A DNA stretch of 30,890 nucleotides from Candidatus Iainarchaeum sp. (GTDB taxonomy: Archaea; Iainarchaeota; Iainarchaeia; Iainarchaeales; CSSED10-239). The stretch lies in assembly GCA_028700115.1 (NCBI GenBank), contig JAQVTI010000012.1, positions 1 to 30,890 on the forward strand. The letters run 5' to 3'. The position numbers were made by a program, and so were the translations under genes. Below are positions 1,823 through 30,890 of the stretch, piece after piece. The stretch's first letter is position 1, and the number at the start of each line of letters is the position of its first letter. The notes beneath the pieces are model-generated. The model ran no database searches and was not told the origin of the DNA. It saw only the letters and a program-made list of their open reading frames with translations.

Positions 1823-2620
1823 TTACCTAATATAATTAGAAGGTGTATCTTCTTTTTTTTCTAAAAGTTTAATATTTTTTGTAATCTCATTAAATGATTC
1901 TTCAATTTTTTTTGAATTTTTATCAATTTTTTTAAGATCTAATTTAAATTTAAATAATTTAGAAATAATTTCTAAAAGTTCCTTAGCAGAACCGTGATCT
2001 CCAAAAGTTAATTTCCCATTAGTTTCACCCATAAAACAAACAGAACTAATTTTATATTGTGTATATGCAATTCCAGGTAAAAGCCCAGCAACACCTGAAA
2101 TTAATGTATCTTTATTATCTTTTTCAAAAAATAAATTTTTTATATTTTTTTTAATAAGTAAATTTTTAGTATTTTCATCACTACAAACAGCTAAAACTTT
2201 TGGTTTATTTTTAATTCTTTTATCTCCTACATTTAAACCTGCAAAAGTATAAATTTCCTTAACTCCTTGCTTTTTAAAAAAATCTGCAAGCTTTTGAGAA
2301 AATTCGTAATGATCAGAAGAATTTAAAATATTCCCTAAAGCAGGCTGAACAGGTCCTACTAAAAAAAGATAATCTTGTGTTTTTGTAGAATAAATATATA
2401 TTTCATCATGAATAAGTTCAAAAATAGAATTTTTAGTATGAATTGCTTGAGGAAATTTATCAGAATAAATATTTGCAAAAAGTTTTGGTTTTGGAGAAAG
2501 TTCTTTAGATAAATAATCTACACTTATTTTCCCAACAAGACCAATTCCAGGAAGCCCAACAAAAACTATTGGTTTTTTTAATTTTTTAGGTTTTAATATA
2601 AGATCTATATTTGTTGCCAT
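1823..2620 (-). CDS. PAC2-family proteasome assembly chaperone-like protein
   Basis: 265 aa. N-terminus KPIVFVGLPGIGLVGKIS is typical of the PAC2 (COG1938-like) family. AAGGTG SD sits 5 nt upstream of the ATG. Confidence 0.65.
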   Translation of the reverse strand: MATNIDLILKPKKLKKPIVFVGLPGIGLVGKISVDYLSKELSPKPKLFANIYSDKFPQAIHTKNSIFELIHDEIYIYSTKTQDYLFLVGPVQPALGNILNSSDHYEFSQKLADFFKKQGVKEIYTFAGLNVGDKRIKNKPKVLAVCSDENTKNLLIKKNIKNLFFEKDNKDTLISGVAGLLPGIAYTQYKISSVCFMGETNGKLTFGDHGSAKELLEIISKLFKFKLDLKKIDKNSKKIEESFNEITKNIKLLEKKEDTPSNYIR

Positions 2621-2677
2621 AAAAACACCTTTTTTAAAATAATTTTATTAAATGTTAAAAAATAATTTATATAAAAA

Positions 2678-3445
2678 TTATTTTTTAGTATCATCTTTTT
2701 TAATAATTTCTAAATTTGAAGAATTTTTAAACTCTTTAGATAAATCTTTTGAAATATTTTCAAAGCTTTTTGCAGCAAGTTTAAAGTCTTTACCAATAAC
2801 TTTTAAATCATATACCCCAGGTCCAGAATAATAAATTTGTGCATTTGGATATTGTTTTAAAATTTTTTGAAAAACTTTTTTTATAATTTCAATTCCTTCT
2901 TCTTTTAAACAATGCACTTTAATTATCCCATAAATAAATTTATTTTTAATAGTAATATTTTTAGAAAGTTCATCAAATAAAATTTGATGATATTTTTTAT
3001 CAATATTATATGTTTCAAAACCATATCTTAAAATATTAATAAAACCCTTATAAAGTTCATCATCTTTTTCTAAAATAGGCTCAGCAATATCTTCCCAAGC
3101 CTTCTCATTTGAAATATTTAAATTTTGTGCAATAATTCCAAGTAAACTTTGAGCTCTTAAAGCAAGTCTATATTCTGAAATTTTTCTCTTTTCATCTTGA
3201 CTTGTAACCCTACTTAAAGATAAATCTATATGGTTTTTTTCAAAATCAATCTTTAAAACTTTTGCAGCTCTCATTTGATTTGGTTTTACATGATTGTGTA
3301 TATTTTTAATCCATGTTGAAGAAACTTGAGAAATATGAACAAATCCTTCACAACCGTCATATTCTAATAAATCAATAAATACCCCAAAATCAGTAATTTT
3401 TGTAACCTTTCCTATAATAATTTCATTAATTTCTGGATAATTCAT
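2678..3445 (-). CDS. eif2a: Translation initiation factor aIF2 alpha subunit
   Basis: N-terminal S1 domain (GKVTKITDFGVFIDLLEYDGCEGFVHISQVS) followed by helical and alpha-beta C-terminal regions. Length 255 aa. AAGGTG SD upstream. Confidence 0.9.
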   Translation of the reverse strand: MNYPEINEIIIGKVTKITDFGVFIDLLEYDGCEGFVHISQVSSTWIKNIHNHVKPNQMRAAKVLKIDFEKNHIDLSLSRVTSQDEKRKISEYRLALRAQSLLGIIAQNLNISNEKAWEDIAEPILEKDDELYKGFINILRYGFETYNIDKKYHQILFDELSKNITIKNKFIYGIIKVHCLKEEGIEIIKKVFQKILKQYPNAQIYYSGPGVYDLKVIGKDFKLAAKSFENISKDLSKEFKNSSNLEIIKKDDTKK

Positions 3446-3487
3446 ATATACACCTTTTTTAATTTACATAATTTAATTTTATAAAAA

Positions 3488-4051
3488 TTAATCAATAACC
3501 TCAATAATATTTTTAGACTCTAAAAGTTTACAGACATCTTCAGGAAGTTCACAAATTTGATCCTTTTCATAAGGTCCATATTCTTTTAAATCTCCACCAA
3601 TAAAAGCAGGGATTTCTTGTAAAAATTTAACTTTTAATAAATCTTTTACATTCTTAATATCTGCTTTTTTAATACCCATTATTGATTGAGTTTGATCATT
3701 TTGTTTATCTATTAATTTAATAATACCTTTTGCAAAATCTAATTCAAAATCAATAAGCCCATCTTCAGAAAAATCATTAGTTCTACTATACATTAAGCAA
3801 AGATTCAAACATTTTTTTAATCTAATTTCTCTTATTTTTTCAACCATTTGTTTAATAGTTTCTAATCTTTTAATATTTCTTGCAGAAAAAGAATCTTTCA
3901 TTTCTTGAGCATATTTTTTTCTTTCATCTATTAAAAATCTTTTTAACTCTTTATAAAAATCAGGATCTAATTTAGACAATAAAGGAGATTTAGTTTCTAA
4001 TCTATATACTTTTCTAAGTTCATCAATATCTAAAATATAATTTTCACTCAA
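3488..4051 (-). CDS. GINS subunit (Gins51/Gins15-like)
   Basis: 187-aa helical protein resembling archaeal GINS. Its start overlaps the priS stop by 8 nt, and priS-gins51 operon linkage is well known in archaea. Confidence 0.6.
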   Translation of the reverse strand: MSENYILDIDELRKVYRLETKSPLLSKLDPDFYKELKRFLIDERKKYAQEMKDSFSARNIKRLETIKQMVEKIREIRLKKCLNLCLMYSRTNDFSEDGLIDFELDFAKGIIKLIDKQNDQTQSIMGIKKADIKNVKDLLKVKFLQEIPAFIGGDLKEYGPYEKDQICELPEDVCKLLESKNIIEVID

Positions 4052-5288
4052 AGTTAGCCACTCCCTTTAAAATTAAAAAAATTGCAACATATTCTTTTAC
4101 TTCAATTATTTGATTTTTTTCAAAAGGTCCATAAAATTGATCTTTCAATCTAAATTTAGGGGTTATATGATTTAATTTAATTTTTTTAAAACTATCACCT
4201 AAAATAATAGGATCTGAAAATGCATCAAAATTTTTTAAATCATCTACAGATTTTATATAACTTGATAAAAACCCAGAACCACCATGAATAGTATCTGGAA
4301 CTCTCATTATTTTATAAATATCTGAAGAAGATTGGGGATCAATTTTTAATCTTATACACATTACACAAAAATTAATAACATCTTTCCAAAAAATATTTGC
4401 ATCAGTAAAATCATTCCAAAGTATATTATTATGATACAACTTCTTTAAAATAACTTCTTTATTTTTAAAAATAATATTTGCTTTCCTTTTACTTATATTA
4501 AAATTTTTAGAAAATAAATCAACATCATAAAAACTTATAATTTCTACTAATTTTTCTAAAATCTTTTTACTCCATCCATTAGAATCTATTTTTGGGGTTT
4601 TAAAAGTTTTATTTTCTAAAACAAAACCAAGTTTTTCTATATTAAGATCATTTCCTAAAATATAATTCATAAGTTCTAATCTAGAAGACTTTGAAAGAGA
4701 AATAATTGATTTATCAGTAATTCTTAAATGATATCCTTTAGAACCAGAAAAACTAATTATAAAAGTAGAAGAATCTAAATTAAAATCATTTTCTAAAAAT
4801 TCAATTAATCTAATAGTTTCTTCTTTAGCTTTATTTAAACAAACATCACAAGTCCATTGAATAATTTTAGTTTGAAAATTACAATATGGACATCTTTCTA
4901 AATTCCCAAAACCTTCTTTTTGACAAGAAGGATTTTGACAAACCCAGACATTATGTTTATCATGGCATGGCAAATCAAAATCATCTGAATCAAATTCATA
5001 AACAATATCTGCTCCATACCATTGTTTATTTTCCATTGGTCTTCTATCTGGAAATTTATAATAACCAACAGAATATGATACAAAAAAAGGAGTTTTTATA
5101 ACTAAATATTTATTAAAATCATCTAGATTTTTAAAAAACAGATGCCTAGAACTAATTTTTTTACCAAAATCCCCTATACCAAATTCTCTTTTAGAAACAT
5201 CTATAATTTTAGAAACATAGTTTTGCATGTAAAAATCTTTAAATTTCTGTCTAATATAATTTATTGTAAAAAAAGAATTTTTAGGCAT
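4044..5288 (-). CDS. priS: DNA primase small (catalytic) subunit PriS
   Basis: AEP primase motifs: EFDSDD (DxD), SGSKGYHLRI, and a zinc-binding insert CQNPSC...CPYC. Confidence 0.9.
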   Translation of the reverse strand: MPKNSFFTINYIRQKFKDFYMQNYVSKIIDVSKREFGIGDFGKKISSRHLFFKNLDDFNKYLVIKTPFFVSYSVGYYKFPDRRPMENKQWYGADIVYEFDSDDFDLPCHDKHNVWVCQNPSCQKEGFGNLERCPYCNFQTKIIQWTCDVCLNKAKEETIRLIEFLENDFNLDSSTFIISFSGSKGYHLRITDKSIISLSKSSRLELMNYILGNDLNIEKLGFVLENKTFKTPKIDSNGWSKKILEKLVEIISFYDVDLFSKNFNISKRKANIIFKNKEVILKKLYHNNILWNDFTDANIFWKDVINFCVMCIRLKIDPQSSSDIYKIMRVPDTIHGGSGFLSSYIKSVDDLKNFDAFSDPIILGDSFKKIKLNHITPKFRLKDQFYGPFEKNQIIEVKEYVAIFLILKGVANFE

Positions 5289-5327
5289 AATATATATTAT
5301 ATAAGAAAGAAATAAAAATATAGTTTT

Positions 5328-5519
5328 TTAATATAAAACCATAAATTTACAAGAATAACCTAAAGTTAAAAAACTTTGACCCCAAGCAGTTGCTGTAGCT
5401 TGACAATTTACAGTAGAAATATTTGTATTTTTAAAAATATAAATAAGAATAACAACATTTGAAACACCCCATTGATTAATATTAGGAAATGCTGTAATAT
5501 TATTATTTTCAAAAAACAC
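5328..5519 (-). CDS. Hypothetical small protein, possibly 5'-extended or a decayed membrane/pilin-like gene
   Basis: 63-aa GTG-start ORF. By my reading the same frame stays open upstream to the rad50 stop and encodes a TM-like helix (KKVIFLLIITVLIVLVYVVLIAGII), but no ATG/GTG/TTG precedes it. Confidence 0.25.
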   Translation of the reverse strand: MFFENNNITAFPNINQWGVSNVVILIYIFKNTNISTVNCQATATAWGQSFLTLGYSCKFMVLY

Positions 5520-5672
5520 ATAAAAAGAAATAATTCCTGCAATTAAAACTACATAAACTAAAACAATTAAAACAGTTATAATTAACAGAAAAATTACTTT
5601 TTTATTAAAAATATATTTTAAATTTCTAAAAAAATATAAACAAAGTAAAAAAATAAATTTATAAAAATAAAT

Positions 5673-7964
5673 TTATTTAATAATTGAAACACCATCAACT
5701 TCTTTATTTCTCTCAATAACTATTTTATTTGCATTAAGTGTATTTAATAATTCAGAATCATGAGTTATTATAAAAATTTGATCTACAAGATTAGGAAGTT
5801 GCTTTTCTAAGGTTTTTGAAAGAAGTAATACACTTTCTTTATCTAAATTATGAGTTGGTTCATCAAGAATAATTAAACCTAAACTTTCTGTTAAAACTAA
5901 AGAAATTGCAATTCTTATAGCAAGAGATGCACAACTTCGTTCACCACCACTTAATAATCCTTCTACTCTAATCCAATCATTTTTTAAAGTTTTAACTTCT
6001 AAAATATAATCATTTTCAGATCTAAGTCTTGCAGAAATAAAATCTTTATAAGCGTATATTTTTGGCCAAATAATATTTAATACACTATTAATATTATCTA
6101 TTAATACTTTTCTTAATTGAAATTGACTATTTTCTAAAGACTTTAAAAAATGAGAAATATCTTGTAACTTTAATTCTAGTTCATATTTTTGGTCAAAAGA
6201 TTGTTTTTGTTTAAATATTAAAGAATCATAAATATTTTTTTCTTTAGTTATTGACGATAATAGATCTTTATAAAGATTAATTTGTTTAACATTTTCTTTA
6301 AATATTAAATCTTGTGACATAATTTTAGAATTTAAAGAAATATATTCATTTTCATCAAAACAATTTTTAGAAAAAAGTAAATTTATATTTTCAAGATCTT
6401 TTTTAAACTTTTCAAAATTATTTAAATCTTTTAAATAATCTTCAAAGGATATTTTTAAAGAAATTAAAGAATCTATTTCTTTTTCAAAAACAGATAAATC
6501 TTTAATTTCAGGAATATCTTTTAAAAGTTTTAAAGAAGAATCTAAATTATTTTTTAAATTATTCAAAGAAATTTCATAAGAAGAAATATTTTTTAATAAA
6601 ATTTCATTTTGCTCAATTTTTTTTAAATAAGACAAATTTAAATTTAAATTATTAGTTATTTCATCGATTTGTTTTTGAATATTAATTAAATTATCATTTA
6701 AAAAAACTAAAGACTTATCTTTTTCAATAATCATAGAATTAATTTGCTCAGAACTAATTTTAGAATCACATACAGGACATTTTGAAAAACCTTTTTTTAA
6801 TTCTAAAATAGATTTTTCTAAAATATTAATTTCATTTAAATAATTATATTTTTTTTCTTTTAAAAATAACAACTTTTTTTCAAAAGAATCCACAATATCT
6901 TTAAAATAAAAAATATCTTTATCAATTTTAAAAAGATTATCTTTTTCAATAGATATTTTTTTTAAAAAAATAGAAATTTCTTTTTCATAAAAAGAAACTT
7001 TATTTTCAAGATCTTTTCTTTTTAAGAAAATAGAATTATTTTTATTTTTTTCTAATAAAAGCTGTTCTTTTTTATTAAAAAGAGATTTATCTAAATCATT
7101 AATTTTATTTTTAACATCAAAAACATTTTTAGAAAAATTAAAAGAATTAATTTTATTTTCATAAGAAGAAATATTTTCTTTTAAAACATTTATTTTTAAT
7201 TTTAAAAAATCATATTCTTTTTTTAGAACTATTAAAAATTTTAATTTATCTTTTAAAATATTATTTTCTTCTAAAATTAAATCTTTATTTTTTTCAAGAA
7301 AATCAATTTTATCAAAATATTTTTTCATTTTTTCTGTGATTAATAAAATATCATAATTTTTTATTTGATCACTATATTGATTATATAATAAATATAATTT
7401 ATCAACTTCTGTTTTTAAAAAATTATTAAGTTTTCTTATAAGTTCTTTCATATCTTCAAAATGAGAAATCCCAAACAAATCATCAAAAGTTTCTTTTCTT
7501 TTTGAAGGAGGAATTTTTAAAAAATAGTCAATTTCATTTTGTTCAGAATACACTATTTTTGAAAAAAAGCTATAATCAATTTTTAAAATTTCAAAAATTT
7601 TACTATTTACATCAGACTGTTTTGGTCCTGCAATTAATTTATTATCTGCATATAATTTTGCAATAGATGGTTTTGAAGATAAATAAATTTCTCTATGAAC
7701 AGAATAATTAATATTATTTATTTCAAATTCTAAAATAATTTTTGAAAAATCTTTTAAATTTGGTTTAAACATAATGTTTTCTACTAAAGAAAGTCTTCTG
7801 TTATTTAAAGAAGGAAATAAACCATATAATGCAAAACAAATTGCATCAGAAATACTAGATTTACCACTACCAATTGATCCAAGAATAATATTTGATCCTT
7901 TTTGAAAGAATATTTTTGAATCTAAATGTGTTTTCCAATTTTCTAAATAAATAGATTTAATCAT
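5673..7964 (-). CDS. rad50: DNA double-strand break repair ATPase Rad50
   Basis: Walker A GSIGSGKSS, long coiled coil, zinc hook CPVC, signature LSGGERS, Walker B LIILDEPT. Start moved to MIKSIYLENW (M18 of the track ORF), the usual Rad50 N-terminus. Confidence 0.9.
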   Translation of the reverse strand: MIKSIYLENWKTHLDSKIFFQKGSNIILGSIGSGKSSISDAICFALYGLFPSLNNRRLSLVENIMFKPNLKDFSKIILEFEINNINYSVHREIYLSSKPSIAKLYADNKLIAGPKQSDVNSKIFEILKIDYSFFSKIVYSEQNEIDYFLKIPPSKRKETFDDLFGISHFEDMKELIRKLNNFLKTEVDKLYLLYNQYSDQIKNYDILLITEKMKKYFDKIDFLEKNKDLILEENNILKDKLKFLIVLKKEYDFLKLKINVLKENISSYENKINSFNFSKNVFDVKNKINDLDKSLFNKKEQLLLEKNKNNSIFLKRKDLENKVSFYEKEISIFLKKISIEKDNLFKIDKDIFYFKDIVDSFEKKLLFLKEKKYNYLNEINILEKSILELKKGFSKCPVCDSKISSEQINSMIIEKDKSLVFLNDNLINIQKQIDEITNNLNLNLSYLKKIEQNEILLKNISSYEISLNNLKNNLDSSLKLLKDIPEIKDLSVFEKEIDSLISLKISFEDYLKDLNNFEKFKKDLENINLLFSKNCFDENEYISLNSKIMSQDLIFKENVKQINLYKDLLSSITKEKNIYDSLIFKQKQSFDQKYELELKLQDISHFLKSLENSQFQLRKVLIDNINSVLNIIWPKIYAYKDFISARLRSENDYILEVKTLKNDWIRVEGLLSGGERSCASLAIRIAISLVLTESLGLIILDEPTHNLDKESVLLLSKTLEKQLPNLVDQIFIITHDSELLNTLNANKIVIERNKEVDGVSIIK

Positions 7965-8084
7965 TAATAAATATAATATAAAAAAAGAATATAAAAGTAA
8001 CTGATAAATAAACAAAAATAAAATATACCTTAAAAAACAAAAATAAGTAAATTTAAAAATGATATCTATCTTAAAATATATTAT

Positions 8085-8285
8085 ATGAAATTAAAAGAAA
8101 AACTAAAAAACTTTCTAAAAGAAGAAAAAGCACAACTTTCTGCAGAAATGATTATTTTAATTGCAGCAATTGTTGCAATAATTTTATTAGTTGTTACACA
8201 ATTACAAAAAACTACAAAAAAAGCAAATGAAGCAGTAGATAAAACAACAGATGATGTTTTTAAAAAAATTGAAGAAATCAACTAA
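8085..8285 (+). CDS. Class III signal peptide protein (Epd-type small pilin-like)
   Basis: 66 aa. The sequence KEEKA-QLSAEMIIL fits the Pfam Class_IIIsignal motif QxSxExxxL exactly, followed by a hydrophobic helix and a short polar tail. Confidence 0.7.
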   Translation: MKLKEKLKNFLKEEKAQLSAEMIILIAAIVAIILLVVTQLQKTTKKANEAVDKTTDDVFKKIEEIN

Positions 8286-8313
8286 TAAATTAAAAAATTA
8301 GAAAGTTAATAAA

Positions 8314-8718
8314 ATGATATCCCAAAAAGCACAAATATCACTAGAATATATTCTAATAGCTCTTACAATTTTGTCAGTTTTAAGTATGCTTTCATATCAA
8401 ATTATTACTATTTATAATAAAAATATAGAAACAATAGATAATAAAAAACTAAAAAATCTATACACACAATTACAAGAAAATTTAGATTTTTCTGAAAATA
8501 TGCCTGAATATTATAAAAGTATAACAATTGATACAGAAAAAGAATGGGAAATATATAAATCTGGAAAAGAAATAATTATAATTAACAAATTTAAAAAATA
8601 TTCAATAAATACAAATCAAGATATAAAAATAATTAAAACAAAAATGTTTGATAAAAATAAAATAATCATAAAAAAAACAAATGATATTATTACAATTACT
8701 TTTGAGGATAAAAAATGA
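8314..8718 (+). CDS. Class III signal peptide protein (pilin-like)
   Basis: N-terminus MISQKA-QISLEYILIALTILSVL (QxSxE motif plus hydrophobic helix). 134 aa. Confidence 0.65.
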   Translation: MISQKAQISLEYILIALTILSVLSMLSYQIITIYNKNIETIDNKKLKNLYTQLQENLDFSENMPEYYKSITIDTEKEWEIYKSGKEIIIINKFKKYSINTNQDIKIIKTKMFDKNKIIIKKTNDIITITFEDKK

Positions 8719-9227
8719 ATCTTGAAAAAACACTAAATATTTTGCTTTTTCCAGGAATAACTATACATGAATTAGCACATATTACAGCATGTATACTTTT
8801 AGGGGTTAAAATAAAAAAAACAAAAATATTTGGAATAAATGGAGGTTATGTAGTTTATAATAAAACAAATACTTTTAAAAGTATAATAATTTCATTTTTT
8901 CCATTTATATTCAATATACTTATTTCAATTGCTTGTGTATTTTTAATAAAACAAAATTATTTAACAATATTTAAGATTATATTTATATGGATAGGGGTAT
9001 CTGCATTATATTCATCAGTACCAAGTATACAAGACTCTAAAATAGTTTTTGAAGCTATAAAAAATAGTTATTCTGGGAATGGGATGTTAAAATGGATAAT
9101 AAACCTATTGTTTTTACCATTAACAATAATTGTACTAATATTAGCATTTATTTTTAAAAACTTAGACCAATCTTTCATTTTTAGAATAATTTTAATATGT
9201 GGATGGATTATAATTTATTTTTTATAA
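8715..9227 (+). CDS. Small polytopic membrane protein with HExxH motif (putative minimal intramembrane zinc metalloprotease)
   Basis: The start ATG overlaps the upstream stop (ATGA). HELAH sits in the first hydrophobic segment, and a later SSVPSIQDSKI resembles the NxxPxxxLDG third-ligand motif of the M50/S2P protein at 20589-21218. About 5 predicted TM segments. Confidence 0.55.
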   Translation: MNLEKTLNILLFPGITIHELAHITACILLGVKIKKTKIFGINGGYVVYNKTNTFKSIIISFFPFIFNILISIACVFLIKQNYLTIFKIIFIWIGVSALYSSVPSIQDSKIVFEAIKNSYSGNGMLKWIINLLFLPLTIIVLILAFIFKNLDQSFIFRIILICGWIIIYFL

Positions 9228-9275
9228 CTTTATAAAAAGAAGCTTTTTAATAAAAAATATTATTTATAATTGTTT

Positions 9276-9304
9276 CTATATATTATATATTATAATTAAG
9301 GGGG
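9276..9304 (+). promoter_or_regulatory. TATA-like box (ctatatattatatattataa) plus SD (aaggggg) upstream of pcna
   Basis: AT-alternating TATA-like element 17-35 nt upstream and a G-rich SD 7 nt upstream of the ATG at 9311. Similar tatattata elements sit upstream of the ORF at 11342 and of rpoK. Confidence 0.4.
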
Positions 9305-9310
9305 AATTTT

Positions 9311-10063
9311 ATGATTAAATTAGTAATAAAAGATATAAAAGAATTTCATAAAAGTATTGATGCAATTGGAGTATTAATTAATGAAGGACTTTTTACTATA
9401 GATAATGAAAAAATGTTTTTAAGAGCTACAGACCCAAGTCAAATAAGCTTAGTAGATTTTGTAATGCCAAAAGATTCTTTTGAAGAATATGTAGTTGATT
9501 TAAATCAAGATATAGATAAAGTAACATTTGGAATAAATGTGAATAATCTATTACAAATATTATCACATTCAAATATAGATGAAAAATTAGTTTTAGAAAT
9601 AAAAGAAGACAAATCAACTCTTCAAATAGAACTAATTGGAAAATCAAAAAGAACATTTAGTATACCATTAATAGATGTATCAGAACAAGAACAACCACTT
9701 CCAAAAGTTCAATTTGATGTAGATGTTCAAATTCCTTCTGAAGAACTTATGGGTGGTATAAAAGATGCAAATCTTTTTAGTTCACATATTATTTTTAGAA
9801 TAGAAGATAATAAATTATTTTTAGAAACACAAAGTAGCAAAGGAAAATTTAAACAAGAAATAGAATCTGATTCAAAAAACATAATTATTTCTGGAAATAA
9901 AGCAAAGGCTATGTATCCATTAGACTATCTTCAAAATATGATTAAAAATGCAAAAACAGTTATAACTTTAAAATTAAAAGATGATATGCCTTTAGAATTA
10001 AGTTACACTATAGGAAATGCAGCAATAAGATATTTCTTAGCACCAAGAGTAGATTCAGAATAA
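9311..10063 (+). CDS. pcn: DNA polymerase sliding clamp PCNA
   Basis: 250 aa, two-domain clamp pattern, C-terminal RYFLAPRVDSE typical of archaeal PCNA. Confidence 0.9.
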   Translation: MIKLVIKDIKEFHKSIDAIGVLINEGLFTIDNEKMFLRATDPSQISLVDFVMPKDSFEEYVVDLNQDIDKVTFGINVNNLLQILSHSNIDEKLVLEIKEDKSTLQIELIGKSKRTFSIPLIDVSEQEQPLPKVQFDVDVQIPSEELMGGIKDANLFSSHIIFRIEDNKLFLETQSSKGKFKQEIESDSKNIIISGNKAKAMYPLDYLQNMIKNAKTVITLKLKDDMPLELSYTIGNAAIRYFLAPRVDSE

Positions 10064-10118
10064 ATTATTAATTTTTTAAAAAACCCCTTTTTTTCTTTTT
10101 TTATATTATATATTATTT

Positions 10119-11270
10119 TTAAAAATCAAGAATATCTCTATTTACATTAATAATTATAATTCTGGAATTACCTTTACCGTTTTTATTATCTTTTAAAGAA
10201 ATTAAATTAAGTTTATCTAATTTTTCTAAATATCTTCTTGCAGATCTTGAAGGAATATTTTCGGTAATATGAGCTAAAGAAGAATCTGATTGATCTTTTA
10301 AACTTAAAAAAAATCTTTTTTCATTATCATTTAATGTTTTAAATTTTTCTAAAAGTTTTACAGAATCAACTAAACTAGAACAACTTATTAAAATATCTTT
10401 AGAAATTTTTAAAAAACCATTTTTTTCAGAAAACTTTGAAGCCTTATAAACTAAATCAATTGCAATTCTTGCATCTCCAGAATTTTTTGCAGCAAAACCA
10501 GTAACAAATCCTATTAAATCTGTAGAAATTGCATTTTCAATCAATCCAAAATTAATTCTTTCTAAAAGGATATTTTTAAGATCAGAAGGAGTATATTTTG
10601 GAAACTCTAAATCTGTTAAAAATAAAGAACTTTGTGTTCTTAAATCTAAATAATTTATAAAAAATTTATTATTTGTTATTAAAATTAATGTAAAAAACTT
10701 AGAATTATATGAAAATCTACTTAAATCATAAAGAAGTTTTGAGCAATCATCTTTTTTTAAATTATCAATTTCATCTAAAATTATTACAGGATAAAAATCA
10801 GACTTTTTAAAAGATTCAACTAATCTATCCCAAACTTCATCAATTGCAAGCCCTCTTCTAGGCAAAATAACTTTATAAAAAGAAACAATTTTTTGAATAA
10901 TTGCAAATCTAGTATTATCTTGAATAGTATTAATATAAATATATTTTATATTATTAGAAAATTCACATAATTGATTTAAAACAAACTTAGAAATTAAAGT
11001 TTTACCTGTTCCAGAAGGACCAAAAATCAAAAGATTATTTGCTTTTTTTTTTGAAAGTAAGGGTTTTAAAAAAAATTGAAGATCAGAAATTTGTTTATCT
11101 CTAGAAACAATATTTTCTGGGAAATAATCTGGATAAAAAACAGATTCATCTTTAAATATAGATATTTCTGAATTTAAATATTCTTTAAAAATATTATTTT
11201 TTTTAGAAACCATATTTAAATAATATATAATATAATTTATAAAGAATTCTTTTTTTATTTTCTCGGTCAT
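10119..11270 (-). CDS. cdc6: Orc1/Cdc6 replication initiator
   Basis: AAA+ Walker [11 protein letters not shown], Walker B VIILDEID, C-terminal winged helix. The true start may be the internal MVSKKNN (11213). Confidence 0.9.
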   Translation of the reverse strand: MTEKIKKEFFINYIIYYLNMVSKKNNIFKEYLNSEISIFKDESVFYPDYFPENIVSRDKQISDLQFFLKPLLSKKKANNLLIFGPSGTGKTLISKFVLNQLCEFSNNIKYIYINTIQDNTRFAIIQKIVSFYKVILPRRGLAIDEVWDRLVESFKKSDFYPVIILDEIDNLKKDDCSKLLYDLSRFSYNSKFFTLILITNNKFFINYLDLRTQSSLFLTDLEFPKYTPSDLKNILLERINFGLIENAISTDLIGFVTGFAAKNSGDARIAIDLVYKASKFSEKNGFLKISKDILISCSSLVDSVKLLEKFKTLNDNEKRFFLSLKDQSDSSLAHITENIPSRSARRYLEKLDKLNLISLKDNKNGKGNSRIIIINVNRDILDF

Positions 11271-11341
11271 TTACTCTCTTTGATAATCTATATATTAACA
11301 AAAATCTTTATATATTATAAAAATACAAAAAAGGTGAAAAA

Positions 11342-11521
11342 ATGAATAAATTATATAGAAAAGACTTAATGAATATGCAAACAAGATTTTTAGTAAAAAT
11401 TAAAAAAACTCTTTTAAAAAGAATGGAATTTGGGGAATATATGACTAAAAAATATAATAATATGCTAATAGATATACTTGGGGAATTAGAAAGCAGATCA
11501 GAAATTAAAAAAGCAAATTAA
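11342..11521 (+). CDS. Unannotated 59-aa hypothetical protein
   Basis: Translates MNKLYRKDLMNMQTRFLVKIKKTLLKRMEFGEYMTKKYNNMLIDILGELESRSEIKKAN. Preceded by AAAGGTGAAAAA, the same SD used by neighbouring genes, 5-6 nt upstream. One residue under the track cut-off. Confidence 0.45.
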   Translation: MNKLYRKDLMNMQTRFLVKIKKTLLKRMEFGEYMTKKYNNMLIDILGELESRSEIKKAN

Positions 11522-14647: not shown

Positions 14648-15100
14648 TTATCTACAAGTTATTTCCCAAACATATCCTGTACATTGAGTATTTCTTAATT
14701 GTAAATTAATTGGAGTTTGACCATTATAAGATTCAATTAAAGCATTTGCTGATTCTCCTTTAGAAAGAGAATTTGAATCTAAAATATTAACATTACTATT
14801 ATCAAAAGAATCATCAGAATCAATTAAAATTACATTAAAATTATGATCTTCATTAAAAGAAATATCTCCTGAATTAACAAATGTAAAAGAAATTTTTTCC
14901 CCAACAGAATTATAATCACAACCTAAAAAAGTAATTGAAGCACCTATACAACTAGTATCAATAGCATTATCAGCATCAGATGTACTTTTTTGAACAAAAT
15001 TTTGACTCCAAGATAATAATAATCCAACTAAAACAATTGCAACAACAATAATTAAAACAGTTGCAATTAATGGAGATATAGATTTTTTTATATATTTCAC
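14648..15100 (-). CDS. Archaeal type IV pilin (Pilin_N/DUF1628-type N-terminus)
   Basis: GTG start. KKS-ISPLIATVLIIVVAIVLVGLLL. Four Cys arranged as C-x9-C and a C-terminal C-x8-C. GAAGGT SD upstream. Confidence 0.8.
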   Translation of the reverse strand: MKYIKKSISPLIATVLIIVVAIVLVGLLLSWSQNFVQKSTSDADNAIDTSCIGASITFLGCDYNSVGEKISFTFVNSGDISFNEDHNFNVILIDSDDSFDNSNVNILDSNSLSKGESANALIESYNGQTPINLQLRNTQCTGYVWEITCR

Positions 15101-15163
15101 AAAATAACCTTCTTTATTTTTTATTTTTAAATATAAAACAAACTTAATTTAAAATAAATATAA

Positions 15164-15190
15164 AAAAAAGATTTTATTAAAATCTTTTTT
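15164..15190 (-). terminator. Perfect AT-rich palindrome (aaaaaagatttta-t-taaaatctttttt) with a U-tract
   Basis: Lies 14 nt downstream of the stop at 15204. About 13-bp arms, and the minus-strand transcript would run into T8. Confidence 0.4.
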
Positions 15191-15203
15191 AAAATATATC
15201 TAT

Positions 15204-15680
15204 TTAACTATGACAATTCTTAAATGTGTAAGTTGCATCAGAACTACAAACAGAAGACTTCACAGTTACATTAAAGGTGTCTCCAGTTAAACCTAAATCT
15301 GAAATATCCATATTTACCTTAACTTGTTGACCAGAAGTTAATCCAGCCCATGTAGAATATGAAGATATAGTATTAGAACCATTATAATCCCCACCATCAC
15401 TAGAAACTTGTATTAAAAAATCATCTGCTGTTGTAAAATCATAATTTGAACCAATATTTTTAACATAAAAAACTATATTCCCATCTATTACAGAACAAGA
15501 AGGTATAGTTAAACTAGCCCCTGTACAAGTTGTATCAATAATATTACCTGTTTCAGAAAGACTATTTGTAGTAAAAGACTTACCCCAATTTAATACAATT
15601 GCAACTAATGCAACTGCAACAACAATTAATAAAACTGTTGCAATTAATGGAGAAATTCCTTTTTTATTTCTTAAATTCAT
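15204..15680 (-). CDS. Archaeal type IV pilin (Pilin_N/DUF1628-type N-terminus)
   Basis: NKKG-ISPLIATVLLIVVAVALVAIVL. Cys pattern C-x9-C plus C-terminal C-x10-C. AGGTGA SD upstream. Confidence 0.8.
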   Translation of the reverse strand: MNLRNKKGISPLIATVLLIVVAVALVAIVLNWGKSFTTNSLSETGNIIDTTCTGASLTIPSCSVIDGNIVFYVKNIGSNYDFTTADDFLIQVSSDGGDYNGSNTISSYSTWAGLTSGQQVKVNMDISDLGLTGDTFNVTVKSSVCSSDATYTFKNCHS

Positions 15681-15731
15681 TATTAATCACCTATTTTAAA
15701 TATTAAAAGATATTTTAATTTTTAATAAATA

Positions 15732-16190
15732 TTAATTACAATTTGTAGTTTGTGCAATTTTATCTGGGCAGCTATCAATATATACTTGAACTTTTTTTAA
15801 AGGCTCAGATAAATTTTGAAAATCCTCTATAGGAGAATATACACTATTATCTATAGCCATTGCATTTCCTACAAAATTTGGTGCAAAATCAGAACTTACA
15901 ATATGATTATTTGCATCAATTACTGTTAATATTAAATTATCATCAATCTCTACAGTTGATTTATCATATAAAATAAAACTTAGCCCATTTGTAGAATCAT
16001 AACTACAACCATAATCTATATAAAAATCAATAGCTGTACAATCAATCCATTCATTTGTTTTTTTAGTTAAACTTTCAGTAGTTTCTTTAGCATTTTGAGA
16101 AGACCAAGAATATAATATTCCTGCTAAAGATAAAGCTACTGCAACTAATAAAATTGTTGCAATTAATGGAGAAATTCCTTTTTGTTTCAT
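15732..16190 (-). CDS. Archaeal type IV pilin (Pilin_N/DUF1628-type N-terminus)
   Basis: MKQKG-ISPLIATILLVAVALSLAGIL. Cys pattern C-x10-C plus C-terminal C-x9-C. About 30 nt at the 5' end is nearly identical to the paralog at 15680. Confidence 0.8.
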   Translation of the reverse strand: MKQKGISPLIATILLVAVALSLAGILYSWSSQNAKETTESLTKKTNEWIDCTAIDFYIDYGCSYDSTNGLSFILYDKSTVEIDDNLILTVIDANNHIVSSDFAPNFVGNAMAIDNSVYSPIEDFQNLSEPLKKVQVYIDSCPDKIAQTTNCN

Positions 16191-30383: not shown

Positions 30384-30464
30384 AATACTAATATTAATAT
30401 ATAAAAATAAATATATACTTATTTATTTTAGAAAAAAATCAAAAAAAATTCAAAAAAAGCTTTA

Positions 30465-30509
30465 GCAAAAATTTGAACCTTGCCTTACGGCAAGAGGACA
30501 AATTTTTGC
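30465..30509 (-). terminator. Nested GC-containing hairpin followed by three U-tracts (terminator-like or structured RNA/DNA element)
   Basis: Outer 11-bp stem gcaaaaatttg/caaatttttgc encloses an inner 6-bp stem cttgcc/ggcaag with a 4-nt loop (GUAA on the minus strand). The minus-strand transcript continues into T7, T8 and T7 runs at about 30430-30458. Confidence 0.45.
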
Positions 30510-30540
30510 AAGTTTCATGCATTAACAACTTCGCCAAATC

Positions 30541-30561
30541 CGTCTTGCCGTCTTGCCGTCT
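30541..30561. repeat. Tandem 8-mer cgtcttgc x2.6
   Basis: cgtcttgc-cgtcttgc-cgtct. Each unit carries cttgcc, the same hexamer as the 5' arm of the inner hairpin at 30479-30484. Confidence 0.6.
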
Positions 30562-30602
30562 ATCCCGTCAAGATACCAGATAGAAAAATATCAAATCCTT
30601 TT

Positions 30603-30890
30603 TTATGGAACTACTACACACCGGAAACCGAAGGTAAAGTGTCGGGACGAAGGACTAAAGAACAAATCCCGAGAAAGAACTCCGGCATAAGAACCAGCGT
30701 ACCAAGGACCACCCACAAGAAAGGCACGATCATCTATATTATCCCCTCTATCACTATAAAAAGCACCAATTCCATCACTAGTATCATAATTTTTATTTAT
30801 TAAAAAAACATCTTTATAACTTAAACTATTTAAATTAGTCAAAATATCATAAGAAGTAATACCACCTTCAGAATATTCTAACCATTCACT
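30603..30890 (-). CDS. Hypothetical protein, C-terminal part (5' end beyond right edge) with a GGxW...GFRC C-type-lectin/FGE-sulfatase-like terminus
   Basis: The frame is open from the window edge (SEWLEYSEGGITSYDIL precedes the track's TTG). It ends RAFLVGGPWYAGSYAGVLSRDLFFSPSSRHFTFGFRCVVVP. Confidence 0.7.
   Translation of the reverse strand, partial: SEWLEYSEGGITSYDILTNLNSLSYKDVFLINKNYDTSDGIGAFYSDRGDNIDDRAFLVGGPWYAGSYAGVLSRDLFFSPSSRHFTFGFRCVVVP
30606..30713 (-). other. Candidate DGR variable region (VR)
   Basis: In the last 36 codons I count about 26 NNY codons and about 11 A in 108 nt on the sense strand. Arg is coded CGG/CGA, unlike the AGA-rich rest of the window. Confidence 0.45.

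Follow-up and report, generated by a model that had tools for sequence, protein, structure and literature searches.

Is the adenine-poor gene end at the edge of an archaeal contig a variable region (VR) of a diversity-generating retroelement (DGR), and, if it is, where does the element that writes it reside? The contig, JAQVTI010000012.1, was analyzed at its full length of 30,890 nt (the window) and belongs to assembly GCA_028700115.1, a metagenome-assembled genome (MAG) that is labeled 'Candidatus ainarchaeum sp.' and carries locus tags beginning with PHN22_. The terminal gene of the window lies on the minus strand next to archaeal genes for PriL, iPGM, Pelota and S17e. Its 95-residue product is recorded at NCBI as the partial protein PHN22_03795, which is read from an uninterrupted frame and terminates in ...DDRAFLVGGPWYAGSYAGVLSRDLFFSPSSRHFTFGFRCVVVP at a TAA stop codon (30603-30605). 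An initial annotation of the sequence proposed that this gene end is a DGR variable region and named a template repeat (TR), a DGR reverse transcriptase (RT), the accessory protein Avd and a C-type lectin (CLec)/FGE-type fold as the things to look for. The comparisons below make it highly probable that 30609-30728 is the VR of a remote (trans) DGR target in a DPANN archaeon. The window lacks RT, Avd and TR, and a matching TR stands beside an RT that is identical to the RT of this MAG, which marks the window VR as a remote target of a DGR elsewhere in the genome.

The compositional anomaly that drew attention to this gene end is confirmed and lies far from chance. The final 108 sense nt of the target contain 11 A (with 26 C, 28 G and 43 T), which agrees with the earlier hand count of about 11. 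In 108-nt windows taken along both strands of the whole window (n = 61,566), the number of A averages 42.6 with a standard deviation of 8.3, and windows with 14 A or fewer are found only at 30602-30750 on the minus strand. The GC content across 30450-30749 is 0.42 compared with approximately 0.20 elsewhere, and the downstream DNA that the initial annotation had included in this island corresponds to a post-VR module, which is described below. Codon reading likewise bore out what had been claimed about codon usage: nearly all codons between the scaffold residues are NNY, and arginine is encoded by CGT, CGG or CGA within the segment and by AGA immediately upstream. A tRNA or other non-coding RNA gene in the GC-rich island was considered and rejected, as ARAGORN and Rfam gave no match (best E = 0.9-2.7, far below the gathering scores).

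The template of the segment was found in a sister MAG, GCA_028691725.1 (contig JAQUYT010000034.1, locus L008), and in identical form in the Logan assembly of SRR22315505 (L009). This TR reads CGTGCCTTTCTTGTGGGTGGTAATTGGAACAATGGTTCAAATGCCGGAGTTCTATCTCGGAATTTGAACAATAGTCCTTCGAACCGGAACTATAACATCGGTTTCCGGTGTGTAGTAGTT, and its translation, RAFLVGGNWNNGSNAGVLSRNLNNSPSNRNYNIGFRCVVV, is the asparagine-rich string that had been predicted for it. The window VR differs from the TR at 20 of 120 positions, and 19 of these mismatches fall on TR adenines (11 A>T, 6 A>C and 2 A>G; hypergeometric p = 2.2e-14); the TR contains 28 A, nine of which are retained in the VR. When the TR was aligned to the window with blastn, a single matching place was obtained (30609-30729, E = 2e-18). 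The VR had originally been placed at 30603-30730; the region stands, and the VR/TR homology refines its limits to those in Table 1. The homology ceases at 30609, where the VR goes on with CCATAA and the TR with TTTTCC. The 21 nt that form this end do not differ between the TR and any VR copy, even at adenines, and would by their position serve as the initiation of mutagenic homing (IMH) site.

Table 1. Coordinates of the features of the window (top) and of the cassette locus in the sister MAG (L008, bottom).
Feature	Position	Strand	Description
DGR target gene, 3' end	30603..30890	(-)	95 codons and TAA; cut by the contig end
Variable region (VR)	30609..30728	(-)	120 nt, 40 codons, RAFLVGG...GFRCVVV
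Invariant VR 3' end	30609..30629	(-)	GGTTTCCGGTGTGTAGTAGTT, encodes GFRCVVV; IMH-like boundary by position
Post-VR non-coding module	30454..30608	(-)	155 nt, ~93% identity with the L008 sequence that follows the cassette-adjacent VR
AGACGG element	30540..30569	(-)	GACGGG-AT-AGACGG-CA-AGACGG-CA-AGACGG; four repeats, period 8 nt; 33 nt past the stop
Putative hairpin/cruciform	30465..30509	(-)	outer stem GCAAAAATTTG/CAAATTTTTGC; inner stem CTTGCC/GGCAAG (30479-30494), GTAA loop
Three oligo-T tracts	30431..30460	(-)	just past the hairpin; sequence read directly
VR, cassette-adjacent	L008 1-123		followed by the post-VR module
122-aa protein	L008 321-689		
Avd	L008 692-1024		beside the RT, sister MAG
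TR	L008 1081-1200		between Avd and RT, non-coding
RT	L008 1411-2472		

The RT itself is encoded in the same MAG as the window. A search with the RT of Candidatus Forterrea multitransposorum retrieved a 353-residue RT (P0304), the cluster of which includes MDD3975738.1 on an 81,820-nt contig. This accession comes three after MDD3975735.1 (PHN22_01035), likewise on an 81,820-nt contig, and the accessions and locus tags place the RT, PHN22_01035 and the window protein PHN22_03795 in one assembly. The same RT protein, without any difference, is encoded in L008 and L009. P0304 contains the motifs IGNLTSQ and YVDD and shares 55-60% identity with the RTs of canonical target-Avd-TR-RT cassettes; NCBIfam has no DGR-RT model, and these motifs and this identity are the grounds on which it is assigned to the DGR type. 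In L008 the 122-residue protein and Avd precede the RT, which explains the two intervening accessions in the PHN22 MAG. In the sister assembly, Avd is seen next to this same RT, and on the 81.8-kb PHN22 contig its presence is inferred from the accession gap. The Avd of L008, taken as 692-1021, scores 86.6 bits against NF033474 DivGenRetAVD (cut-off 80) and carries a PF22296 bAvd annotation on record, and the 122-residue protein shows a weak match to four-helix bundles. The best E value in a tblastn search of the window for the RT, Avd and the 122-residue protein was 0.2, in line with the earlier statement that none of the cassette components lies there. The cassette had been expected either beyond the right edge or in trans; the second part of this expectation held, with the cassette on another contig beside a paralogous target. 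In this lineage it adjoins the gene for ribosomal protein S8e.

Three side observations concern the cassette locus. An additional gene for a protein of 122-128 residues is located between target and Avd in L008 (321-689), L003 (11681-12067), L005 (11679-12065) and L039 (3870-4247); its products give weak four-helix-bundle/23S_rRNA_IVP matches and may represent a second, divergent Avd-like protein. The motif AAAAACTACATCTGTA occurs approximately 60-90 nt 3' of the TR in L008 (1259), L003 (12689) and L005 (12681) within divergent, AT-rich spacers, and its version in L039 is AACTACATCTGA (at about 4886); this conserved motif may belong to the priming spacer region of the DGR RNA. The VR at L008 1-123 shows a 1-nt deletion relative to the TR (TCTCG-ACTTTGA) that causes a frameshift and a TGA, which is either a consensus artefact from hypervariable reads or a disrupted target.

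PHN22_03795 has two paralogues in the MAG, both partial proteins at contig ends and 86% identical: PHN22_01035 (P0002, on the 81,820-nt contig) and PHN22_04195 (P0003, on a 13,733-nt contig). Between the VRs of the three copies (P0001, P0002 and P0003), 12 codons vary; each of them contains A in the TR, and every substitution among them is attainable by changes of A only; none of the 22 A-free TR codons varies. Ordinary divergence of FGE-sulfatase paralogues under diversifying selection could be proposed instead, with no retroelement and with the composition reflecting a codon or amino-acid preference of the domain. Such divergence would fit the NCBI label of the homologues, 'SUMF1/EgtB/PvdO family nonheme iron enzyme', and it does account for the paralogue differences A43V, I52M and D53G. 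These were considered as products of the DGR and rejected, since the TR homology begins only downstream of them and the substitutions are of the ordinary kind. However, it does not predict a non-coding 120-nt repeat of the segment between Avd and RT, nor the adenine bias of the mismatches or the invariance of the A-free codons. A VR-less tandem paralogue in L006, moreover, is AT-rich at its C-terminus and has no downstream element. We regard divergence without a retroelement as extremely improbable, and the DGR origin of the window VR as highly probable.

Several observations nevertheless weigh against the assignment of 30609-30728 as a remote VR. The lone mismatch outside TR adenines, G87>A, turns CGG into the synonymous CGA. 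Codon 14 of the VR (30687-30689) is TAT (Tyr) in all three PHN22 copies and AAT in the TR of the sister assembly; the tyrosine could be common by descent, could result from selection of an aromatic side chain where the binding site has its base, or could go back to a TR in this MAG that differs slightly. The TR itself is taken from the sister MAG and the Logan assembly of SRR22315505, not from the DNA of the PHN22 MAG, and the target gene runs off the contig, which leaves its upstream part outside the window. Finally, the genome contains a post-VR repeat of approximately 155 nt, so that the assembler could have put the VR of the wrong paralogue on the PriL flank.

In this last case, the contig end would be chimeric, with the VR of the cassette-adjacent gene joined to the PriL flank via the shared repeat. 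Three MAG contigs do end in the same gene, with termini that have approximately 127 nt in common and then part, a pattern typical of a k-mer branch where a gene is multi-copy. The post-VR module also includes an exact 64-nt repeat common to the window and L008 (30454-30517), and an independent Logan contig (L001), which matches the window without a mismatch, supports it only up to 30483. However, position 30483 is 30 nt inside the 64-nt repeat, as expected for an assembly with k=31 at a repeat boundary, which indicates that the module is multi-copy in that sample. In L001, an assembly independent of the window, PriL is physically joined to the hairpin module (its 3' half), so a post-VR module does occupy this place. 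In addition, the window module differs from that of L008 at 11 positions, the similarity breaking off abruptly at 30454, and a target gene occupies the corresponding position ahead of PriL in a related genome. A chimeric contig end is thus improbable in our judgment, and in the worst case a VR allele has been swapped among paralogues, which leaves the identity of the feature unchanged.

Established DGR biology suggests how the remote VR would be written. The cassette on the 81.8-kb contig, directly after the paralogous target, would comprise the 122-residue four-helix-bundle protein, Avd, the 120-nt TR and the RT. The TR would be transcribed, and the RT-Avd complex would make cDNA from it with misincorporation opposite the template adenines. 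This cDNA would then replace the VR in each target copy that has a matching 3' boundary and the downstream cis elements, so that the ligand-binding face of the C-terminal CLec/FGE-fold domain would be altered at 13 codons, mostly AAY. At the window copy, the AGACGG repeats and the hairpin may direct homing that is still ongoing.

Indirect signs of recent activity are the restriction of the paralogue VR differences to adenine codons and the cassette-adjacent VR, in which several adenine codons are not the same in two assemblies whose RT proteins are identical (GGSWGNGSNAG... in L008 vs GGYWSIGSYAG... in P0002); this allele difference points to rewriting in the lineage not long ago. No additional alleles of the VR/TR came out of a metagenome scan in which TR adenines were given as N (0 matches). 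A fossil VR would have been written by the DGR in the past and, as a remote copy that is no longer a substrate, would retain paralogue differences in a frozen state. The TR mismatch off adenine, the tyrosine at codon 14 in all three copies and the lack of a cassette inside the 30-kb window would agree with such a history, and the same possibility has been raised for RT-less VRs of Nanoarchaeota (Paul et al., 2015, PMC4372165). Nonetheless, the frame is open across 95 codons, nothing is disrupted in the IMH-like end, the AGACGG repeats or the hairpin, which share approximately 93% identity with the cassette-adjacent copy, and the RT, Avd and TR are intact as well; the L008 and P0002 alleles, again, differ under an unchanged RT. 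We therefore consider a fossil VR rather unlikely, and judge from these sequence features that the DGR is probably, though by no means securely, active at the window copy today.

The DNA that follows the VR contains the elements that may determine which loci are written. A pattern as specific as the AGACGG element has an expected number of 0 by chance in the window. The same arrangement, GACGGG-NN-AGACGG-NN-AGACGG-NN-AGACGG, also follows the VRs in L003, L005, L006 and L008. In a scan of species-representative genomes, the element was found at three places in DPANN, each 36-41 nt past a gene end encoding ...GLRCV and a final Q or K, and a metagenome scan added 8 loci, every one of which follows a gene end of this kind at a distance of 36-89 nt. 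Taken together, all 11 of the 11 DPANN scan matches are positioned 36-89 nt past the stop of a VR gene that ends in ...G(F/L/V)RCV plus two residues. In L006, two tandem paralogues serve as a built-in comparison for whether element and VR go together: the copy at 8564-9922 has an AT-rich C-terminus (...VGFRCVK) with neither a GC-rich VR nor AGACGG repeats, and the copy at 10001-11356 has both. In the TR-bearing loci that were compared with VRs, neither the AGACGG element nor the hairpin follows the TR.

The strict association of the element with VR ends, across genomes the RTs of which are only 55% identical and with unrelated spacers, argues for a function. Our best guess from the sequence is that the AGACGG repeats are a candidate cis element with a role in target-site recognition; alternatively, they could be a terminator or regulatory element of the target genes. 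Pairing of the AGACGG repeat DNA with cassette RNA was considered and set aside, as the complement CCGTCT was sought in the cassettes and is not present there, and folding of the AGACGG element into a hairpin of its own is not convincing (z = -2.35). Matches to the 24-base AGACGG pattern in 17 bacterial contigs are simple tandem repeats of the (GGGGAGAC)n type and are unrelated to DGRs. Intergenic tandem octamers of the types (GGGGAGAC)n and (GGGAAGAC)n were observed in L010, L015-L018, L020, L025-L027 and others, from Cyanobacterial, Planctomycetota, Gemmatimonadales and other bacterial sequences, with no link to DGR targets; their periodicity makes them fit the AGACGG pattern by chance.

Downstream of the repeats, the DNA fold of the hairpin at 30465-30509 has a predicted energy of -16 kcal/mol with z = -4.7, and none of 200 shuffled sequences is as stable. 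Related post-VR hairpins are found in L039 (CCTTGCC-TAA-GGCAAGG), in L038 (GC stem with a GAA loop) and in L003 and the Forterrea group (AT-rich, 14 bp). An inverted repeat after the VR has already been described for DGRs (PMC4372165, PMC5758913), and the window hairpin is the counterpart of it. Transcription of the target gene probably terminates, in the archaeal manner, at the oligo-T tracts just past the hairpin, before PriL is reached.

The AGACGG repeats and the hairpin may together form a lineage-specific, portable 'address' that marks gene ends as DGR substrates, and the window may be an ancestral site that kept its address after the cassette was lost; we put this forward as a tentative proposal, more likely wrong than right. 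If it is true, one cassette could serve scattered targets, cassette and targets could move independently, and the recognition element would be distinct from the IMH and cruciform of the Bordetella phage. A keyword look-up, with partial coverage of the DGR literature, gave no mention of an AGACGG-type element there. The element is possibly the sole new feature of this system, the remainder of which is of known type.

The order of genes in a related genome bears on the ancestral arrangement. In locus L039 (JGI Ga0643562_0001310, 2368-10003), the target is followed by a 125-residue protein, Avd, TR, RT, PriL, iPGM, Pelota and S17e; the RT is 60% identical to P0304 and PriL 50% identical to that of the window. 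The window has target, PriL, iPGM, Pelota and S17e in the same order, and the cassette of L039 occupies exactly the position where, in the window, only an AT-rich stretch of approximately 70 nt separates PriL from the post-VR module. The window locus thus looks like an old DGR site that retained the target and its cis elements, the cassette having its place elsewhere today, a polarity that is read from one outgroup only (L039).

The product of 30603-30890 is assigned from its sequence to the C-terminal portion of an FGE-sulfatase/CLec-fold domain. The 95-residue fragment by itself matched no Pfam family, and a protein scan of the GTDB species-representative genomes gave no match to it, which places the MAG outside that collection. 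A profile of the three fragments, however, retrieved 159 representatives at E<=1e-3, nearly all of them aligned at the extreme C-terminus. Full-length homologues have 440-490 residues and comprise a putative class III N-terminus, a beta-rich stalk and an FGE-sulfatase domain (PF03781), and the family ends in GGxWxxGxxAGxxxLxLxxxPxxRxxxxGFRCVVVP. Their N-termini resemble pilins and archaellins, with what appear to be signal peptides of class III type (KKSISPLIATILL...); the Pilin_N match is weak (E = 0.004, below the cut-off), and the JGI product name is 'flagellin-like protein'. As the homologues appear to have an archaeal pilin-like signal peptide, the window protein is probably displayed on the cell surface, where it would act in attachment. 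Within the window, three tandem small genes (150-158 residues, 14648-16190, minus strand) start with archaeal class III signal peptides (KKSISPLIATVLIIVVAIVLV..., KKGISPLIATVLLIVVAVALV...), and the repeat families D1-D4 cover this cluster as well as 14-74 and 5540-5600; it appears to be a pilin-like gene cluster with N-termini of the same kind as those of the full-length target family members.

The fold that had been expected is supported at the family level, by PF03781 in the homologues and by structural comparison. In a search of the PDB with the family profile, the best match was TaqVP (5vf4, E = 2e-4); SUMF2 and EgtB were also matched, and Mtd over the VR part. The AlphaFold2 model of homologue P0011 (pLDDT 83.6, pTM 0.84) gave TaqVP (2e-7), Mtd (4e-4) and TvpA as the top Foldseek matches, all of which are DGR variable proteins. 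Since the nearest structures are non-enzymatic DGR variable proteins, the enzyme name given to the homologues is probably a carry-over at the domain level.

Family members also occur within cassettes. P0173 and P0155 belong to canonical DGR cassettes, each with an adenine-specific VR/TR pair, and in Ca. Forterrea multitransposorum (CP045477.1, L003), L004 and L005 the homologue is followed by a 128-residue protein, bAvd, a gap and an RVT_1 protein; the VR/TR pair of L003 spans 124 nt with 89% identity and mismatches at TR adenines. The family members of L002 and L006 have no RT within 10 kb, which suggests that remote targets are common in these genomes. Separately, the complete Forterrea genome (L023, L012/L003) contains two VR-bearing targets with the AGACGG element, one beside the cassette and one elsewhere; L031 and L032 (Ga0210034_1000002) are listed together with these two-target loci. 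An insertion sequence gene (DDE_Tnp_1) is located directly upstream of the cassette-adjacent target in L003 and L004.

The existence of a DGR in this genome is not surprising, given the prevalence of DGRs reported for DPANN archaea (PMC6349945). Archaeal DGRs, CLec-fold targets, RT-less VRs and post-VR hairpins have likewise been described in earlier reports (PMC4372165, PMC5006420, PMC5758913, PMC6349945). The window is a clean case of a remote target, a class that contig-based metagenome surveys miss by design (PMC8144416), and its VR could be recognized by composition alone at a contig edge. The three MAG contig ends that break in the target gene exemplify the way in which paralogous DGR targets break up an assembly. 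Should the module of AGACGG repeats and hairpin qualify loci for homing, target-site recognition would gain a testable handle, and orphan targets in DPANN genomes could be traced by a simple sequence tag.

The closest known systems are the DGRs of other DPANN archaea, namely AvpA of Nanoarchaeota and those of Pacearchaeota and Woesearchaeota (Paul et al., 2015, PMC4372165; Handa et al., 2016, PMC5006420; PMC6349945). They share with the present system a tiny AT-rich archaeal genome, an RT, an Avd-like protein and a TR, together with adenine-specific mismatches, a VR fold of the CLec/FGE type, an inverted repeat after the VR and RT-less VRs elsewhere. The window VR ends the protein (...GFRCVVVP and the stop) and its hairpin is non-coding and approximately 100 nt downstream, whereas that of AvpA is inside the open reading frame; in addition, the window family has a putative pilin-like class III signal peptide, and four AGACGG repeats precede the hairpin. 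The TvpA DGR of Treponema denticola with its seven remote targets (summarized by Wu et al., 2018, PMC5758913) resembles the present system in that one cassette serves scattered FGE-type paralogues in trans; in contrast to that bacterial element, the one described here has at least two, probably three, targets. With the prototype, the Mtd DGR of Bordetella phage BPP-1, it has in common adenine mutagenesis from TR to VR, an invariant IMH-like 3' end, Avd and RT, and a GC-containing inverted repeat after the VR, and Mtd matches both the VR part of the family profile and the P0011 model. The BPP-1 target, however, is a phage tail-fibre protein encoded beside the cassette, with the hairpin directly after the IMH and no AGACGG repeats. 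TaqVP of Thermus aquaticus (5vf4), which is the best match in both profile and structure, has the FGE-type CLec fold and the C-terminal VR pattern GGxW...G..R; it differs in being bacterial, in sharing only 16-18% identity, and in lacking the pilin-like N-terminus and the beta-sandwich stalk.

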